DNA of 50,196 bases, from IMG/VR virus record IMGVR_UViG_3300006149_000020, one strand, 5' to 3'. Below the pieces are notes generated by a model, which worked only from the letters and a program-made list of their open reading frames with translations, had not been told where the DNA came from and did not search any database. Source of the stretch: a virus. Made by a program: the position numbers and the translations under genes. Shown piece after piece: positions 2,794 through 41,874 of this stretch; positions within the stretch are counted from its first letter, which is position 1, and every line of letters starts with the position of its first letter.

Positions 2794-4013
2794 TTTCAGC
2801 AAAGCAAAAGAAAATCCTCGCCTTCCCCTACAGCCCCTACGATGCCCTGATCTGCGACGGCGCGGTCCGGTCCGGCAAAACCTCCATTGAGGTGGTGGCA
2901 TTCATCGACTGGGCCATGCGGGAGTTTTCCGGCCAGCGGTTCGGCATCTGCGGCAAGACCGTGGGCAGCGCGACTGAGAACATGGTCATTCCCTACATAT
3001 CCCGCAGTTACGCCAAGAAACGTTATACGCTCCACTGGCGGCGTTCGCAGAAGATTCTGGAGGTTCGCCGGGGCCCCAGAGTGAATTACTTCGAGGTGTT
3101 CGGCGGACGGGACGAATCCAGCTTCGCTCTGATTCAGGGCCGGACGTTGGCGGGGGTACTGCTGGACGAAGTAGTCCTTATGCCGGAGAGCTTTGTCAAT
3201 CAGGCACTGGCCCGGTGTAGCGTGGACGGCGCGAGAATCTGGTTTTCCTGCAATCCCGGAAACCCGTCCCACTGGTTCAAAGAGGAGTGGATCGACAAGC
3301 GGGAGGAGCACAATGCTCTTTATCTCCACTTCGAGATGACCGACAACCCCAGCCTGAGCGATAAGACGCTTGCCCGTTATCAGTCCATGTATTCCGGTGT
3401 GTTTTATGACCGGTATATCCGGGGGCTGTGGGTAGCTGCCGAGGGCCTGGTGTATCCCATGTTCAGCGAAGAGGAACACGTGATGGACGAGATACCCTGG
3501 CAAGCCCTCCAGCGGGGGAGATGGTACATCTCGGTAGATTATGGTACAGTGAACCCGACCTCGGCGGGGCTTTGGTGCCTGTGGCGGGGGACGGCGTATC
3601 GCGCCGGCGAATATTACTATGACAGTAGGAAGCCTGGGAACCATCAGCGCACGGATGAAGAGCATTATACAGGTCTTGAGGAGCTGGCTGGAGACAAGAA
3701 GATAGATCGGATCGTCGTGGACCCATCCGCTGCCAGCTTCAAGGAGACGATCCGGAGGCACGGGAGGTTCGCCGTGTGGGACGCAGACAACAGCGTCGTG
3801 GATGGCATCCGGTTGACGGCTTCGCTGCTGCAGGCCGGACGGATCCTGATCCACAGGGACTGCAAGGGCCTGCTGTCGGAGATCGCCGCATACCGCTGGG
3901 ACACGGAAGCGTCGATGGATACGGTGATAAAAGAAGCGGATCACGCCTGTGACGACATGCGGTACTTCTGCTCCACTATCATGGCGCGGGAAGTGCGGTC
4001 TGCGGGCATATGA
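2790..4013 (+). CDS. terL: Terminase large subunit (PBSX-like)
   Basis: Walker A CDGAVRSGKTS and Walker B VLLDEV. The C-terminal nuclease region contains VVDPSAASF and DHACDDMRY. Confidence 0.9.
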   Translation: MISAKQKKILAFPYSPYDALICDGAVRSGKTSIEVVAFIDWAMREFSGQRFGICGKTVGSATENMVIPYISRSYAKKRYTLHWRRSQKILEVRRGPRVNYFEVFGGRDESSFALIQGRTLAGVLLDEVVLMPESFVNQALARCSVDGARIWFSCNPGNPSHWFKEEWIDKREEHNALYLHFEMTDNPSLSDKTLARYQSMYSGVFYDRYIRGLWVAAEGLVYPMFSEEEHVMDEIPWQALQRGRWYISVDYGTVNPTSAGLWCLWRGTAYRAGEYYYDSRKPGNHQRTDEEHYTGLEELAGDKKIDRIVVDPSAASFKETIRRHGRFAVWDADNSVVDGIRLTASLLQAGRILIHRDCKGLLSEIAAYRWDTEASMDTVIKEADHACDDMRYFCSTIMAREVRSAGI

Positions 4014-4058: not shown

Positions 4059-4817
4059 ATGAACGAACTGAAGATCTTTGAAGACGAGCGATTTGGGACC
4101 ATCCGAGCCATCGTGGAAGATGGTAAGACACTGTTCTGTGGGTCCGACGCGACAAAAGCGTTGGGCTACAAGAATTCGAGTAAAGCTCTGACAGACCATT
4201 GTAAGGGTGTAACGAAACGTTATATCCATACTCCCGGCGGAAATCAGGAAATGAATTTTATCCCCGAGGGCGATATCTACCGCTTGGCTGCCAAGTCTGA
4301 GCTGCCGGGGGCGGAGGAGTTCGAGATCTGGATCTTTGATGAAGTCCTTCCCTCCATCCGCCGCAACGGCGGATACATCTATAGGCAGGAGAACATGACT
4401 CCAGAGGAGTTGATGGCAAAAGCGCTGATGGTGGCGCAAAAGACTCTGGCTGACCGTGAGGCCCGCATCTCGGCACTGGAGATCGCCAACTCCGCCCTGA
4501 CAGTGGAGACGCAGGTCATGAAGCCCAAAGCGGACTACTTCGATGAACTGGTTGATCGGAACCTGCTGACCAATTTCCGGGAGACGGCGAAGCAGTTGGA
4601 GGTCAGGGAGCGGGACTTCATCCAGTTCCTGCTCAACAAGAAGTACATCTACCGGGACAAGCGTGGCAAGCTGATGCCCTATGCCCAGCATGTGGATAGC
4701 GGCCTGTTCGAGGTCAAGGAGTGCTTCAACGAAAAGACCCAGTGGAGCGGCACCCAGACGATGGTGACGCCCAAGGGGCGGGAGACCTTCCGGCTGCTGT
4801 TCGTCGGGGCGGCGTGA
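4059..4817 (+). CDS. Antirepressor, Bro-N plus KilAC-like C-terminal domain
   Basis: Bro-N: MNELKIFEDERFGTIRAIVEDGKTLFCGSDATKALGY...IPEGDIYRLAAKSELPGAEEFEIWIFDEVLPSIRRNG. The C-terminal half resembles KilAC. Confidence 0.85.
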   Translation: MNELKIFEDERFGTIRAIVEDGKTLFCGSDATKALGYKNSSKALTDHCKGVTKRYIHTPGGNQEMNFIPEGDIYRLAAKSELPGAEEFEIWIFDEVLPSIRRNGGYIYRQENMTPEELMAKALMVAQKTLADREARISALEIANSALTVETQVMKPKADYFDELVDRNLLTNFRETAKQLEVRERDFIQFLLNKKYIYRDKRGKLMPYAQHVDSGLFEVKECFNEKTQWSGTQTMVTPKGRETFRLLFVGAA

Positions 4818-4852: not shown

Positions 4853-5476
4853 ATGAATGAACTGATGATTTTCAACGATCCCGAGTTTGGGACTGTCCGC
4901 GCTGTGGAGATCGACGGAGAACCGTGGATGGTCGGCAAGGATGTGGCTGCGGCGCTGGGGTACAGCAACTCCCGCGACGCGCTGGCAGTCCATATCGATG
5001 AAGAGGACAAAGCTACCGTCGCGATTCACGACGGTAGCCAAAACCGAAACATGACCGTCATCAACGAGAGCGGCCTGTATTCGCTGGTGCTGTCCAGCAA
5101 GCTCCCTGGCGCGAAGAAGTTCCGCCGGTGGGTGACGGGCACCGTCCTCCCGGCGATCCGTAAGACCGGCTCGTACAGCGCCAGCGTCCTGACGGACGGC
5201 ACGAAGGCCGCGCTTGCCGAAGCCAAGGCGAAGAACGCCCGGGCCCGTGTGGCTTCCATGTGGATGAAGCTGGCCAAGGAAAACCCCATCCCAGAGTACA
5301 AGGCGATCTGTGCCCATTATGCCAGCGCGGAGCTGACCGGCGGGCAAGCGGTGCTCCCTCTCCCCGAGGCGACGGAGCGTACATACAGTGCCGCCGAGGT
5401 CGGAGAGCTGCTGGATGGCATAAGCGCCGATATAGTGGGGCGCATGGCGAACCAGGCCCCCGCGATCTTGATATGA
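4853..5476 (+). CDS. Bro-N domain protein (antirepressor-like)
   Basis: MNELMIFNDPEFGTVRAVEIDGEPWMVGKDVAAALGY...INESGLYSLVLSSKLPGAKKFRRWVTGTVLPAIRKTG. Confidence 0.8.
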   Translation: MNELMIFNDPEFGTVRAVEIDGEPWMVGKDVAAALGYSNSRDALAVHIDEEDKATVAIHDGSQNRNMTVINESGLYSLVLSSKLPGAKKFRRWVTGTVLPAIRKTGSYSASVLTDGTKAALAEAKAKNARARVASMWMKLAKENPIPEYKAICAHYASAELTGGQAVLPLPEATERTYSAAEVGELLDGISADIVGRMANQAPAILI

Positions 5477-5512
5477 GGCGGGGGAGATATCGCATCCAAG
5501 AGAGGGAGATAC

Positions 5513-6925
5513 ATGGGCATCATCGAATGGGCGCTGAACAAGTTCGGCTACACGAAACAGGATAGAGTGACGATCCCTGCCGGGACCATCGAGAAGGAGT
5601 TCAGTGTGCTCCCTGCCGCCTCCCGGAAGATGGAGGACGCTATCGACCTCTGGTATTCCATGTATATCGACCACCCTCCCTGGGAGAGCTGCGATGTGCG
5701 GCCGCTGGGATTGCCGGGGGCCATCGGTCGGGAGCTGGCCCGTCATGCGTTGACGGAGTTCTCTGTGGCCGTGTCCGGCAGCGAAAGGGCGAAGTACATC
5801 GACCGGCAGATGCAACTGGCGGTGGCAAGGTTCGGGATCGATCTGGAGCTGGGCCTCTGCCTGGGCGGGGTGTGCCTCAAGCCGTACCCGGAAGATGGCC
5901 GCATCTTGGTGGACGCTTTCACCACGCGCTTCACGCCGACCCGCTTCGATGGGGCCGGCAAGGCGATAGGCGGCGTGTTTGAGAGCAAACCTGTGCGCCA
6001 GGGGAAAGACTGGTTCGTCAAGCTGGAGCACCACGACTTCCAGATACGCGAGGATGGCAGCAAGGTCTACGTGGTGGAAAACAAAGCATTCCGCAGCGGA
6101 CGGGACGGCGGCATCGGTGCTCAGGTCCCTCTCGATGCTATAAAGGAATGGGCAGGACTGGAGGAGCATAAGGAGATCGAAGGTCTGACCGGCCCGCTGT
6201 TCTCCTATTTCAAGCCGCCGATAGCCAATCGGGTGGAGCCCGATTCGCCTATGGGGGTCTCCGTGTATTCCGGAGCGGTGATGGACCTCATCCGGGAAGC
6301 GGACCTTCAGTGGGAGCGTATCTGGTGGGAGTTCAAGAGCGGGGAGCGGAAGATCTTCTCAGATGCCACGCAGATCGATGCAGGACAGATCGGAGACCGG
6401 CTTTTCCTGAAAGGCGCTTTTACCAGCGACGGGAATCTGTTCGAGCAGTTCAGCCCAGAGCTGCGGAACGCTGCACTATATGACGGGCTCCAATATATCC
6501 TGAAGATCGTCGAGTTCAATGTGGGGCTCGCTTTCGGAACGATCTCCGACCCGCAGTCCGTCAACAAGACGGCCACCGAGGAGATCATGACCAAACACCG
6601 GCAGTACGTGACGGAGGACTGCATCCAGGAAACGTTCCAGGCGGCATTGGACGATCTGATCTACGCTATGGACGCGTGGTGCGACCTGGCGCAGCTTGCT
6701 CCAGCGGGGGAGTACAGCGTGGGATACAACTGGGGCGACGGGGTCCTGGACGATCCTGAGACCAGGCGGCAGGACATGGCGATGGATATGCAGCGGGTGG
6801 CTGCTGGACTGATGAAGCCGGTCGCCTTCGTCATGAAGTGGGACGGCGTGGACGAAGAGACCGCCCGGAAGATGCTACCGGATATGGAAGATATGACGGA
6901 CGAGGAACAGGACGAGGTGGAGTAA
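5513..6925 (+). CDS. Portal protein
   Basis: 470 aa, positioned after the terminase and before the minor capsid gene. Acidic C-terminal tail. Confidence 0.8.
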   Translation: MGIIEWALNKFGYTKQDRVTIPAGTIEKEFSVLPAASRKMEDAIDLWYSMYIDHPPWESCDVRPLGLPGAIGRELARHALTEFSVAVSGSERAKYIDRQMQLAVARFGIDLELGLCLGGVCLKPYPEDGRILVDAFTTRFTPTRFDGAGKAIGGVFESKPVRQGKDWFVKLEHHDFQIREDGSKVYVVENKAFRSGRDGGIGAQVPLDAIKEWAGLEEHKEIEGLTGPLFSYFKPPIANRVEPDSPMGVSVYSGAVMDLIREADLQWERIWWEFKSGERKIFSDATQIDAGQIGDRLFLKGAFTSDGNLFEQFSPELRNAALYDGLQYILKIVEFNVGLAFGTISDPQSVNKTATEEIMTKHRQYVTEDCIQETFQAALDDLIYAMDAWCDLAQLAPAGEYSVGYNWGDGVLDDPETRRQDMAMDMQRVAAGLMKPVAFVMKWDGVDEETARKMLPDMEDMTDEEQDEVE

Positions 6926-38559: not shown

Positions 38560-39078
38560 AAGCAATTTTAGGGAAGGGGTCCATTACTTCCTGCTGCAAG
38601 GAAAGGACTTGGACTCCTTCAGATTGCAAGTGACTGATAGTCATCTGCAAATTTCTCCAATGACTCGCTCACTTTACCTTTGGACCGAGCTGGGGTCAAG
38701 CCGGAGTATCAGGCACTGGCGGTCAGCGATTTCTACCAGACCGACGGGGTCCACCTCCCGCGCATCGCCTTACAGGGCACGAAAGTCACCTATGACAAGG
38801 GGACGGTCGCGGAAAAGCTGGGCGTCTATTCCAAAGCATCGGGCGGCAAGGCGCCCCACGCGCAGGCCATGGGAGCGATCATCTCCGAACTGACGCTCTC
38901 ACCGGAGGAGCGAGAGGCGGTACCTTACATCCGCAACGGCCATGATGGGACGGACTTCCAGTACACGCAGAGCGTCATCGACAAGGTCCACAGTTGGTTG
39001 GAGGAGCGGGCCTGGCCGGATACGATCTCTGCCGGAGGCAAGAACTATCCCATCGTGTATCGAAAAGCGAAGGGATGA
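38468..39078 (+). pseudogene. ORF6N/KilA-N-type antirepressor-like gene interrupted by a 1-nt frameshift at a G4 run
   Basis: Frame A: MYGQRVITTELLAQVYETDTNNITQNFKRNKSNFREGVHYFLL...SLYLWTE. After GGGG (38692-38695) sensible sequence continues in the next frame to 39078, while frame A becomes Arg/Ser-rich. Confidence 0.55.
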
Positions 39079-39160
39079 GGGCATCTATCCCACATATGTG
39101 GATAGGGCCGAAAGATCGTGTCGGCAGCGTTCTTTTGTACATTCGAATGAGGAGGAAGCT

Positions 39161-39946
39161 ATGAACGGGACATTCAAGATCACCCTGGCTTACTTGAAAG
39201 AGCTGGGAGCCTGCCGAGAGGGGCAGCGGGAATTCCAGAGGGCGTTCCCAGATGGCGGGGAGTATCAAGAAGTGCTCGACCGCTGTGCTGAGGAGGACCG
39301 AGTCGACCTTGGCCGATGGCTGCTCGAACATGTTGGCCCAACAGAAGATGTGCGAGTCTACGAGGAAGCGATTGATGACGCTGATAAAAATATCATTTTT
39401 GCTGGTGGACTCGATTTTAGGGCCGAAGTGAAAATAAGATCTTTGCTTTCAGGCTGTGGCATCAAGGCAGGTGATGGCATCAAGGCAGGCTGTGGCATCC
39501 AGGCTGGCTGGGGCATCGAGGCAGGCTGGGGCATCGAGGCAGGCTGGGGCATCGAGGCAGGCCGTGGCATCAAGGCAGGCTGGGGCATCGAGGCAGGCTG
39601 TGGCATCCAGGCAGGCTGGGGCATCGAGGCAGGCTGGGGCATCGAGGCAGGCCGTGGCATCAAGGCAGGCTGGGGCATCAAGGCAGGCTGTGGCATCCAG
39701 GCAGGCTGGGGCATCGAGGCAGGCTGGGGCATCGAGGCAGGCCGTGGCATCCAGGCAGGCTGGGGCATCAAGGCAGGCTGTGGCATCCAGGCAGGCTGGG
39801 GCATCGAGGCAGGTGATGATTTCTGCATATTTGCGGGGCTGAATGTTCGCAAGTCGGACCAGGAGCATCATGCGATCGTGACGGCAAATGCAAAGCCTGA
39901 GAATTTGATGTCCGGATGCTGGAGACCAAAAGAGAACATGACATAA
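39161..39946 (+). CDS. Hexapeptide-repeat (GxGIxA) protein, predicted beta-solenoid
   Basis: GAGGAGGAAGCT then ATG. ~99-aa N-domain (LKELGACREGQREFQRAFPDGGEY), 20 hexapeptides, ~43-aa tail. Confidence 0.7.
   Translation: MNGTFKITLAYLKELGACREGQREFQRAFPDGGEYQEVLDRCAEEDRVDLGRWLLEHVGPTEDVRVYEEAIDDADKNIIFAGGLDFRAEVKIRSLLSGCGIKAGDGIKAGCGIQAGWGIEAGWGIEAGWGIEAGRGIKAGWGIEAGCGIQAGWGIEAGWGIEAGRGIKAGWGIKAGCGIQAGWGIEAGWGIEAGRGIQAGWGIKAGCGIQAGWGIEAGDDFCIFAGLNVRKSDQEHHAIVTANAKPENLMSGCWRPKENMT
39458..39817 (+). repeat. Tandem repeat, 20 x 18 bp (consensus GGCATCGAGGCAGGCTGG), in-frame
   Basis: Counted directly. Variants occur at codons 3 (GAG/AAG/CAG) and 6 (TGG/TGT/CGT/GAT), with a loose 5-unit (90-bp) super-period. 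Confidence 0.95.
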
Positions 39947-39966: not shown

Positions 39967-40083
39967 ATGGAAACGAAGATCGAAGCAGGTCCGGAAGTGT
40001 GGGCCGTGTTCCCGGCCGAGGACTGCTGGCCCACGAGAGAGGCCGCGCTCACGGCGCTTGAAGAGGAGGGAGGAGCGCGATGA
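39967..40083 (+). CDS. Small hypothetical protein (38 aa)
   Basis: TAGGAGGAAACT then ATG. METKIEAGPEVWAVFPAEDCWPTREAALTALEEEGGAR. ATGA-coupled to the next gene. Confidence 0.35.
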   Translation: METKIEAGPEVWAVFPAEDCWPTREAALTALEEEGGAR

Positions 40084-40667
40084 GGAAGCGTCTGGACGAC
40101 CTGTTCGCCCTGCTGATGCTGGCCTTCGGAGTGGCGGCGGTGCTGGCCGGCGGCTGGTGCCTGGCCCATTCCATCGATCGGGCCAGAGCGGAGGCAGAGC
40201 CTATCCCTGTGGCCAGCGTACATATCGAGCTGCCCCAGCCGTCCCTTGAGCCTGCGCCCGCGCAGGAGCCGCTGCCCACGCCGACTCCAGCGCCTTATGA
40301 CCCGGACGTCCCGCTGTCCCTGGAGCTCCAGCTCGTGCTCGACGAGGTCTGCGCTGAGACCGGGGTCCCCGTTGCCCTGGCCCTGGGCTTGATCGAGGTG
40401 GAGAGCGGCTTCCAGGTGGACGCGGTGAGCCCGTCGGGCTGCGTGGGGCTTTGCCAACTGAACCCCCGCTATTTCCCGGACGAGCTCTCCCCGGCGGACA
40501 ACCTTCGGGCAGGCATTAGATATCTGGGGGAGCTGCTGGAACGGCACAGGGACACGGCTGCGGCCCTGACTTCATACAATGCTGGCCATGATACCGGCGC
40601 GAGAGGCTACGCGGATGCCGTCCTCGCGGCGGCGGAAAGGTGGGAGGAGCATGGAGCACTTAGGTGA
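40080..40667 (+). CDS. Membrane-anchored lytic transglycosylase (SLT domain)
   Basis: N-terminal TM LFALLMLAFGVAAVLAGGW, a Pro-rich linker, and SLT motifs IEVESGF...GLCQL...YNAG. Confidence 0.8.
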   Translation: MRKRLDDLFALLMLAFGVAAVLAGGWCLAHSIDRARAEAEPIPVASVHIELPQPSLEPAPAQEPLPTPTPAPYDPDVPLSLELQLVLDEVCAETGVPVALALGLIEVESGFQVDAVSPSGCVGLCQLNPRYFPDELSPADNLRAGIRYLGELLERHRDTAAALTSYNAGHDTGARGYADAVLAAAERWEEHGALR

Positions 40668-41874
40668 CATCACGAAGCTGAACGGATACGAGGTCCCAGT
40701 GGTGGACGTAGTGATCGGCGGGAGCCCATGCCAGGATCTGAGCATCGCGGGGAAGCGGGCGGGGCTGGCGGGGGCGCGGAGCGGGCTTTTCATGGAGCAG
40801 GTCAGGATCGTGAAGGAGATGAGGGAGGCAGATGCAGGTCGAGGCCATGCAGGAGAGCTTGTTCGACCCCGATACATGGTGTGGGAGAACGTCGTCGGAG
40901 CCTTTAGTTCCAACAAGGGAGACGACTTCCGGGCGGTCCTCGAAGAGACGATCCGGATCGCAGCCCCGGACGCTCCCGACGTTCCATTACCTGCAAAGGG
41001 ACGCTGGCCTTTGGCAGACTGCTGGATGGGGGACGGCTGGTCCGTCGCCTACCGAGTTCTCGACGCACAGTTTTGGGGAGTGCCCCAGCGCCGCCGTAGG
41101 ATCGCGCTTGTCGCAGATCTTGGAGGACACGCCGCACCGGAGATACTCTTTGTCCGCAAAGGCGTGTCGGGGGATCCTGACGAGGGCGGAGCGGCGGGGC
41201 AAGCCGCTGCCGCCGGAGCTGAAGGAGGCGCTGGAGCGGCAGTCGCGCTCCGGATGAGGTCCGGACGCGAGGGCGGCGGCAAGGGAGCACTGGTCCAGGT
41301 GGAGAAGAGCGGGACGCTGGGGTGTAACAACGATCAGACGATCTTCCGTCTTTGTGCCGGGTTCAAACCGCACACCGGGGCGAGCGCGGGGAGCATCGGT
41401 TATCAGGAGGAGATGGCGCCCACCATCGACACGGGGAAGCCGATGGCCGTATACGATCCCGGGAGGCCCGCCTGTGCGGAGGTATGCCGCCTGACGCCGC
41501 TGGAATGCGAACGCCTCCAGGGCTTCCCGGACGGATGGACGGACATAGGGCCGTGGAGGGACAGCGCGGGGAAGCTCCACAAGCAGAGCAGCGACAGCGC
41601 ACGCTACAAGGCCCTGGGGAACTCCATCGCCCTGCCGCCCTGGGCCTGGGTGTTGAAGCGTCTGTGCGCCTGCTATGAGCGGCCCGCGACCATGGCCAGC
41701 CTGTTCGACGGGATCGGCGGCTTCCCGCTGATCTGGGAGCGGCTGAACGGCCCGGGCTCCTGCCTGTGGGCCAGCGAGATCGAAGAGTTCCCCATGGCGG
41801 TCACCGCATATCATTTTGGAGAGCCGCAGGAACGATGGAGAGGAGGGACGGCATATGGGCCGCTACTATTATGA
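40651..41874 (+). CDS. DNA (cytosine-5) methyltransferase with permuted motif order (III-X then I-II)
   Basis: HLGDIT (III), GGSPCQDLS (IV), WENV (VI), GVPQRRRRIALV (VIII), RLTPLECERLQGFP (IX), ALGNSIALP (X), then MASLFDGIGGF (I) and WASEIEEF (II) at the C-terminus. Confidence 0.8.
   Translation: MEHLGDITKLNGYEVPVVDVVIGGSPCQDLSIAGKRAGLAGARSGLFMEQVRIVKEMREADAGRGHAGELVRPRYMVWENVVGAFSSNKGDDFRAVLEETIRIAAPDAPDVPLPAKGRWPLADCWMGDGWSVAYRVLDAQFWGVPQRRRRIALVADLGGHAAPEILFVRKGVSGDPDEGGAAGQAAAAGAEGGAGAAVALRMRSGREGGGKGALVQVEKSGTLGCNNDQTIFRLCAGFKPHTGASAGSIGYQEEMAPTIDTGKPMAVYDPGRPACAEVCRLTPLECERLQGFPDGWTDIGPWRDSAGKLHKQSSDSARYKALGNSIALPPWAWVLKRLCACYERPATMASLFDGIGGFPLIWERLNGPGSCLWASEIEEFPMAVTAYHFGEPQERWRGGTAYGPLLL

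Follow-up and report, generated by a model that had tools for sequence, protein, structure and literature searches.

A natural family of phage C5 DNA methyltransferases circularly permuted between motifs II and III, with a conserved open reading frame embedded in the gene

Introduction

C5 DNA methyltransferases (MTases) are among the model systems for circular permutation, a textbook route by which new protein topologies arise. Slaska-Kiss et al. (2018; PMC5944983) made fourteen permutants of M.MpeI and seven of M.SssI. Those with the break between motifs II and III (cp62M.MpeI and cp58M.SssI) were the most active of all topologies tested, cp62M.MpeI showed activity comparable with wild type, and no linker was needed for direct fusion of the native termini (PMC5944983). 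The first group of M.HaeIII permutants that came out of directed evolution, as that work is cited in PMC5944983, has the same II/III break. Among natural enzymes, a REBASE search identified 27 permuted C5 enzymes, including M.BssHII, M.Alw26I, M2.Eco31I, M.Esp3I, and M2.BsaI, all of which carry their permutation within the variable region and are referred to as Type H; the topology with the II/III break, Type B, was reported absent from natural enzymes, and a possible explanation of this absence was offered (PMC5944983). In this work, we analyzed a viral DNA of 50,196 nucleotides (IMG/VR record IMGVR_UViG_3300006149_000020; the whole stretch is hereafter the window), in which an open reading frame (ORF) at 40651..41874 encodes a C5 DNA methyltransferase with the motif order III-IV-VI-VIII-variable-IX-X-I-II. 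Its family is the missing natural Type B, a natural and widespread variant of a known protein rearrangement. Our literature searches for a natural II/III permutant found no later paper. The same gene also contains a conserved ORF in the +1 frame, which is the more surprising of the two results.

Results and Discussion

Motif order of the window methyltransferase

The MTase ORF runs on the plus strand, as do all features of the window described below, from an ATG at 40651 to a stop codon at 41872-41874, and its product has 407 residues. This product scored above the curated cut-offs of two C5 DNA methyltransferase profiles, namely, PF00145 (117.6 bits against a cut-off of 22, E-value 1e-33, in four separate stretches) and TIGR00675 dcm (118.6 bits against 100.65). 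Motifs were placed by a phmmer comparison with PDB sequences, using M.HhaI as the reference. Residues 349-394 align with M.HhaI 15-58 (motifs I-II), residues 5-58 with M.HhaI 59-112 (motifs III-IV), residues 131-154 with M.HhaI 146-169 (motif VIII), and residues 278-301 with M.HhaI 271-293 (motif IX). The M.HhaI pieces are thus matched in swapped order, and the two breakpoints are exactly complementary, at HhaI 58/59. The canonical I-to-X order is not present; the order is III-X-I-II. A sequence-only reading of the locus had proposed a C5 methyltransferase of this kind, with motifs I-II in the C-terminal segment and complementary breakpoints, and the comparisons with the Pfam profile and with M.HhaI bear out each of these points.

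Consistent with this arrangement, de-permutation of the product (residues 345-392 followed by 1-344) yielded a sequence that is colinear with the canonical enzyme of Streptococcus phage Javan261, with 42% identity over 315 residues. The II-III junction in this alignment is unbroken (AVTAYHFGE followed by MEHLGDITKL in the window; ILITRKNIPS followed by MKHLGDITKL in Javan261). At the other junction, the Javan261 C-terminus (..ILKFIEK, then the stop) corresponds to ..LKRLCACYER344 of the window, and the Javan261 start (M1SRLTLGSLFDG) corresponds to PATM348ASLFDG. This X-to-I junction gives the impression that one gene copy was fused at its end to the start codon of a following copy.

The chain starts four residues ahead of the motif III Gly-Asp, such that HLGDIT (40657..40674; equivalent to M.HhaI G59-D60) forms the new N-terminus. 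Motif IV (GGSPCQDLS, 40717..40743, with the codon of the catalytic Cys27 at 40729-40731), motif VI (VWENV, 40879..40893), and motif VIII (QRRRR, 41086..41100) follow. Residues 151-202 (41101..41256) consist of 'IALVAD..PEILF' and a Gly/Ala-rich linker. The variable or target-recognition region proper (GGGKGALVQ..DQTIF.., 41257..41481) varies in length among relatives. After motif IX (RLTPLECERLQGFPDGW, 41488..41538) and motif X (YKALGNSIALP, 41605..41637), the fusion junction CYERPATMAS (41671..41700) joins the canonical C-terminus to Met348, a retained residue aligned with the start codon of canonical genes; A346, T347, and M348 are invariant. The relocated motif I (LFDGIGGFP, 41701..41727) and motif II (LWASEIEEF with the acidic Glu376, 41764..41790) come last. 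Homology stops at HFGE (41812-41823), and the 16-residue tail beyond is non-conserved. Motifs III, IV, VIII, IX, I, and II were located by the M.HhaI alignment, and motifs VI, VIII, IX, X, I, and II are conserved in relatives. Invariant in 32 relatives are D6, P26-C27-Q28, E79-N80-V81, Q146/R148-R150, motif IX, G323-N324-S325, F352-G357, and E376. The elements that bind S-adenosylmethionine (AdoMet) are divided between both chain ends, with F352-G357 (motif I) and E376 (motif II) at the C-terminus and D6 (motif III) at the N-terminus.

A Shine-Dalgarno-like GGGAGGAG (40642..40649) lies upstream of the ATG, and similar sequences precede the start in most relatives. A longer in-frame start at ATG 40579 overlaps the upstream SLT transglycosylase gene (40080..40667, PF01464). 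The sequence-only reading did not take this extension for the gene start, and the homologs agree in leaving it unused: among the best 120 of at least 8000, nearly all begin with M-x-HLGDIT, and a few have short N-terminal extensions or a frameshifted start instead.

With its new N-terminus between motifs II and III and its native termini fused (..CYER-PAT-MASLFDG), the enzyme belongs to Class/Type B as defined in PMC5944983, a class hitherto based on engineered enzymes alone. It does not belong to Type H, defined there by an N-terminus in the variable region and motifs IX-X before I-VIII, as its variable region is internal. Engineered Type B enzymes are alike in the position of the N-terminus, the directly fused termini, and the order III-X-I-II. 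However, those are laboratory constructs of CG-specific enzymes, whereas the window enzyme is natural and belongs to a clade of phage orphan MTases. The M.BssHII type is a natural permutation of the same fold and likewise has motif X fused to motif I, but its N-terminus in the variable region and its order IX-X-I-VIII keep both structural domains intact, whereas the break in the window enzyme is inside the large catalytic domain. In the DRM methyltransferases of plants, the motif order is VI-X then I-V. These C5 enzymes with rearranged motifs (PDB 7l4h and others) were among the PDB sequence matches; they are eukaryotic, and their breakpoint differs from that of the window enzyme.

Occurrence and selection across the family

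The permuted architecture is shared by a large family. A search of 5.8 billion proteins yielded at least 8000 homologs, and the architecture was read from the best 120. All of these are permuted, with motif IV (where intact) N-terminal and motifs I-II located about 40-85 residues from the C-terminus. In IMG/VR, at least 599 related stretches have the identical architecture, and all 82 viral loci that were classified by the order of their matching pieces are permuted. Among the best 80 of the 488 related stretches found in GTDB species genomes, 61 are permuted, 11 are canonical, and eight are cut by contig ends. An exhaustive phmmer search of 1.84 billion cluster representatives (50%-identity clusters) found 3214 proteins at E<=1e-30, and the permuted order is present in 124 of the best 150. 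The order that had been read from the window by itself is kept in relatives down to 40% identity. Among isolates, Acutalibacter sp. 1XD8-33/-36, Gemmiger sp. An87, and Intestinibacillus massiliensis have permuted copies, and so do two cultured Faecalibacterium phages, FP_Toutatis and Lelie. The sequences that flank the permuted gene differ from locus to locus. The topology that was best tolerated in the laboratory, and that was reported absent from nature in 2018, is thus abundant in the gut phage population.

Purifying selection acts on every part of the gene. In motifs IX-X-I-II, the nucleotide entropy is 1.2-1.5 at codon position 3 compared with 0.15-0.55 at positions 1 and 2. This excess at position 3 is characteristic of purifying selection, which thus extends to the relocated motifs I-II.

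In one related locus, L010, the 3' part of the permuted gene (variable region-IX-X-I-II) occurs a second time directly downstream of the complete gene (5340-5909), beside an N in the sequence. This second copy may represent either a true partial tandem duplication or an artifact of assembly.

Relatives with other motif orders and a possible origin

Relatives with the canonical I-X order, among them P0370, P0377, and the gut phages NatCom_42228/21982, reach 55-60% identity. Over motifs III-VIII, the canonical members of the clade (Javan261, NatCom_42228/21982, the C5 domain of P1 Dmt, and Omega gp127/128) are 42-60% identical to the window enzyme. They differ from it in motif order, but have the 'ILFE..G.SG' linker and the embedded +1 ORF described below in common with it. 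A third order, target-recognition domain (TRD)-IX-X-I-II-III-IV-VI-VIII, was found in six representatives (P0301, P0311, P0337, P0353, P0351, and P0356), such that Type-H-like relatives exist in the window's own clade (P0301, P0311, P0337, and P0353). In this third order, the X-to-I fusion junction is the same as in the window's family, and the II-to-III junction is uninterrupted. The P0311 gene (L174, 1637-3259) is complete inside a 7.3-kb contig and carries the +1 ORF too. A neighbor-joining tree built from the III-VIII core interleaves permuted, canonical, and Type-H-like forms and does not separate them.

Most likely, a canonical gene underwent tandem duplication and in-frame fusion, after which the first copy would have lost motifs I-II and the second copy would have lost motifs III-X. 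The new start may have been provided by a conserved internal Met located just before HLGD. A third order with a common X-to-I junction is a prediction of this duplication-fusion-truncation route, because one fused tandem could be trimmed at different places. Tandem duplication with loss of the outer ends had also been suggested from the window alone, and it fits the X-to-I junction, where the canonical C-terminus abuts a retained Met at the canonical start. Duplication intermediates with motifs I-II at both ends were not found in 162 loci or among the best 150 cluster representatives, and no classified locus (82 viral loci and the best 80 genome loci) retains motifs I-II upstream or III-IV downstream.

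In mycobacteriophage Omega, the canonical relative (gp127/gp128; L085, 1598-2902) is split by an in-frame stop into two polypeptides that carry motifs I-VIII and TRD-IX-X, respectively, and the embedded +1 ORF lies within the first of these.

Proposed enzyme and alternative explanations

We consider it likely that the gene encodes a complete, folded, orphan phage 5-methylcytosine (5mC) DNA methyltransferase in which a circular permutation has placed the break between motifs II and III. The chain runs from motif III through motifs IV, VI, and VIII and the variable region to motifs IX and X, and the C-terminal helix of motif X would be fused directly to the former N-terminus. As a consequence of this fusion, the first strand-loop-helix of the cofactor-binding fold (FxGxG of motif I and the acidic residue of motif II) would come last. 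The three-dimensional enzyme should be unchanged, because the termini of C5 methyltransferases are close together. Presumably, the enzyme methylates the phage DNA and thereby protects it against host restriction.

Several observations weigh against this interpretation. In both cultured phages, a change in the length of a poly-G tract between motifs VI and VIII interrupts the frames of the MTase and the embedded ORF. The tract has 9 G in FP_Toutatis (NC_047915; L081, ~3323-3331) and 14 G at the same site in Lelie (L082, ~3323-3336); it may be a hypermutable on/off switch or a homopolymer sequencing error. Also, one sub-lineage has a 4-nucleotide insertion (TTGC or TAGC) in motif IV, right after the codon of the catalytic Cys. 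Because of these variants, not every permuted copy is obviously active. Furthermore, an AlphaFold2 prediction of the MTase with 32 relatives had a mean predicted local distance difference test (pLDDT) score of only 43, which is too poor for superposition on M.HhaI or a fold search.

The 4-nucleotide insertion was observed at L032/L033 (~4080-4090), L045 (~3755-3765), and clusters P0023, P0046, P0050, P0056, P0074, P0079, P0083, P0091, P0098, and P0110. It moves everything downstream to another frame, and the downstream ORF is still intact and conserved. The same site coincides with one of two sites of intein-like insertions (C...HN followed by C). These insertions are located directly before the catalytic Cys in P0281 and P0351 (GGSP-[CFPAGTL..VVHN]-CQDLS), and in motif VI in P0295, P0318, and P0356 (WENV-[CFAG..AHN]-CGAFSS). 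In P0012, an HNH_3 domain is present in the variable region.

Among the alternatives, activity only as a domain-swapped oligomer, in which each cofactor-binding fold would be completed by the I-II segment of a different chain, survives best but is unlikely. When M.MpeI is split between motifs II and III, its fragments show efficient trans-complementation, such that the I-II unit can dock separately (PMC5944983). However, the X-to-I linker in the window enzyme is no longer than the sum of the canonical termini, which fits an intramolecular fold, and engineered monomeric permutants are active. That the fold is kept for a role other than DNA cytosine-5 methylation, such as non-catalytic DNA binding or action on another substrate, appears quite improbable. 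The sub-lineage that lacks an in-frame catalytic Cys, with its downstream ORF still intact, would be in line with such a role, but all residues for catalysis and AdoMet binding are invariant in the window and most relatives.

Slightly less credible still is a frozen remnant, that is, the inactive junction of two tandem MTase genes without their outer ends. The X-to-I junction does resemble a gene-to-gene fusion with a retained start Met, and some relatives have frameshifts. Nevertheless, the order is kept down to 40% identity with invariant catalytic residues, no classified locus retains the missing ends next to the gene, and selection on the relocated motifs I-II already contradicts the loss of function that a remnant implies. 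The family-wide order, the invariant residues, and the purifying selection therefore exclude a decaying gene. The sequence-only reading had likewise preferred a functional permutant over a remnant, and its preference is strengthened by these three lines of evidence, while the catalysis itself is what we infer from sequence. Finally, a mis-assembled tandem duplication in this contig has a negligible probability, with nothing specific in its favor except the suspicious second copy in the related locus L010, because the same architecture has been assembled independently hundreds of times (at least 599 IMG/VR stretches, 61 of the best 80 GTDB loci, isolate genomes, and the two cultured Faecalibacterium phages), and the flanking genes directly abut the ORF ends.

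A conserved ORF embedded in the +1 frame

Within the MTase gene, we found a second ORF in the +1 frame (40832..41257; 141 residues and a stop), which overlaps MTase codons 61-202, i.e., motifs VI-VIII and the linker. By tblastn, each of the 82 related loci was found to contain this ORF, without exception in the +1 frame. Its ATG is 175-190 nucleotides after the MTase start in most loci, at MTase codon 59-64, and AAGGAG (from 'KEM') is 7-13 nucleotides upstream in most relatives. In the window, the putative translation signals (40813..40828) include AAGGAG (40813-40818), a +1-frame stop TGA (40820-40822), and GGGAGG (40823-40828), all within the conserved 'KEMRE' of the MTase.

The +1 frame is open far beyond chance. 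Among 43 non-redundant genes, it has two stops in 5805 codons inside MTase codons 61-195 compared with 4.78 per 100 codons outside; the +2 frame has about four stops per 100 codons both inside and outside the overlap. In an independent replicate with 39 genes from bacterial genomes, there are no +1 stops in 5070 codons compared with 4.81 per 100 outside. The codon positions under constraint also change along the gene. In MTase codons 1-60, the position-3 entropy is 1.3-1.7. In codons 151-160, all three positions are constrained, and 'IALVAD..PEILF' is conserved in both frames. In codons 171-190, the position-3 entropy is 0.42-0.49 and position 1 is the most variable (1.14-1.46). The sequence of the Gly/Ala-rich linker thus appears to be dictated by the +1 ORF. 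A Gly/Ala-rich target-recognition region had been assigned to residues ~171-205 by the sequence-only reading; this assignment does not hold, as the segment is the MTase-frame reading of the conserved +1 ORF and not a conserved recognition domain.

The embedded ORF is not restricted to permuted enzymes. We found the same peptide in the +1 frame in nine of nine annotated canonical phage MTases checked, namely, P1 dmt (L083, 2177-2647), Javan261 (L084, 1905-2291), Omega gp127 (L085, 1773-2243), Caulobacter DMCA, Bcep22, Vibrio VpaJT_1, Pasteurella Pm86, Roseobacter CRP-822, and Pseudomonas zjk6. In these phages, the +1 frame is open for 133-221 codons, including 133-139 codons even at 38-39% GC content, and most of the nine have an ATG with GGAG or GAGG 7-10 nucleotides upstream. 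The ORF is thus spread over permuted and canonical C5 MTases of phages of Firmicutes, Actinobacteria, and Proteobacteria. In a set of 12 diverse phage enzymes, identity over the 60 codons that precede QRRRR is 48% in the MTase frame and 26% in the +1 frame, whereas over the 55 codons that follow it, identity is 28% in the MTase frame and 50% in the +1 frame. The C-terminal ~55 residues of the embedded ORF are therefore better conserved than the overlapping MTase frame.

This conserved C-terminal domain comprises residues 80-136 of the embedded ORF (41069..41239), as judged from conservation and predicted structure. Its sequence in the window is SRLSQILE..YSLSAKACRGILTRAERRGKPLPPELKEAL, the consensus is LS(Q/D)(I/V)LE..P.(R/K)Y(F/Y)LS.KAC.GILRRA.KRGK.LP..L..AL, and the predicted P1 peptide ends with ..YFLSSKACAGILRRGEKRRKSLPPLLQMALQSVAKA. 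AlphaFold2 predicted the N-terminal ~90 residues to be disordered and the C-terminal ~50 residues to form a confident three-helix domain (pLDDT 81-90). Searches with the ORF or its profile against Pfam, NCBIfam, PHROGs, and PDB sequences returned nothing meaningful, and a Foldseek search of the C-terminal domain against PDB found nothing (best E-value 3.9). The profile search with the embedded ORF retrieved only standalone ORFs of ~140 residues and frameshift hybrids with PF00145. The standalone matches are named 'Uncharacterised protein' (for example, in Escherichia coli) or 'hypothetical protein', and one match of 166 residues is named 'DNA-cytosine methyltransferase'. No publication on an ORF embedded in a phage MTase gene emerged from our literature searches.

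A frame that is open beyond chance, purifying selection in that frame, and a start with its own ribosome-binding site indicate that the embedded ORF is a real coding sequence with a predicted product. Two other explanations were considered and rejected. The +1 peptide is not part of the MTase through programmed frameshifting, as its conserved part overlaps motif VIII and the next strand, which are conserved in frame 0. Nor is its conservation a by-product of the MTase frame or of high GC content, given the flip in the variable codon position and the open frame in low-GC phages. Separately, in L058/L059 (4043-5332 and 4176-5465), P0169, P0185, and P0196, the +1 ORF runs in frame into the MTase variable region and motifs IX-X-I-II to give a hybrid protein, which may be a variant produced by a frameshift or may reflect another, split arrangement.

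Same-strand embedded genes are known in phages, such as lambda Rz/Rz1 and phiX174 B in A and E in D, and the dcm and vsr genes of E. coli overlap as well. As in these examples, the locus studied here has a second, putative protein whose +1-frame coding sequence lies inside or overlaps another gene and is inherited together with it. However, the embedded ORF has no detectable similarity to Rz1, Vsr, or any family in Pfam, NCBIfam, PHROGs, or PDB sequences. Because it is locked inside the MTase gene, a role of its product that is tied to methylation is suggested. If expressed, the ORF would be an unrecognized gene of phage P1 and of thousands of MTase loci in phages and prophages, and it would explain the odd low-complexity linker after motif VIII in this clade.

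On balance, we lean toward a joint interpretation with two parts: that a large natural Type B family exists together with canonical and Type-H-like relatives that have one fusion junction, and that the whole clade, which reaches from phages of gut Clostridia to coliphage P1, mycobacteriophage Omega, and phages of Caulobacter, Vibrio, and Burkholderia, carries a translated embedded +1 gene that works with the MTase. If this is true, the clade would preserve in nature the traces of permutation through duplication, fusion, and truncation, and the embedded product may act as an MTase subunit, as a regulator, or to counter the costs that 5mC imposes on its carrier. With its canonical, Type B, and Type H members, the clade provides natural material for comparing kinetics and tracing the evolutionary route. 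Annotation that takes motif order into account would stop permuted genes from being called truncated or fused.

Genomic context

The window is a temperate tailed phage, with genes for a terminase, a portal protein, a major head protein, a tape measure protein, a serine integrase, a Sak4-like protein, a helicase, and a primase. The MTase gene is located in the replication/recombination module, with the SLT-domain gene on one side and an SbcC-like ATPase gene on the other, both directly abutting the ends of the MTase ORF. No obvious nuclease partner for the MTase was seen among the neighboring genes examined. Just upstream of the SLT gene, the ORF at 38942-39946 contains an array of ~20 copies of an 18-nucleotide unit (39450-39813). 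This array has a higher-order period of 90 nucleotides with 95% matches and encodes (GI[KEQ]AG[WCR])n repeats.

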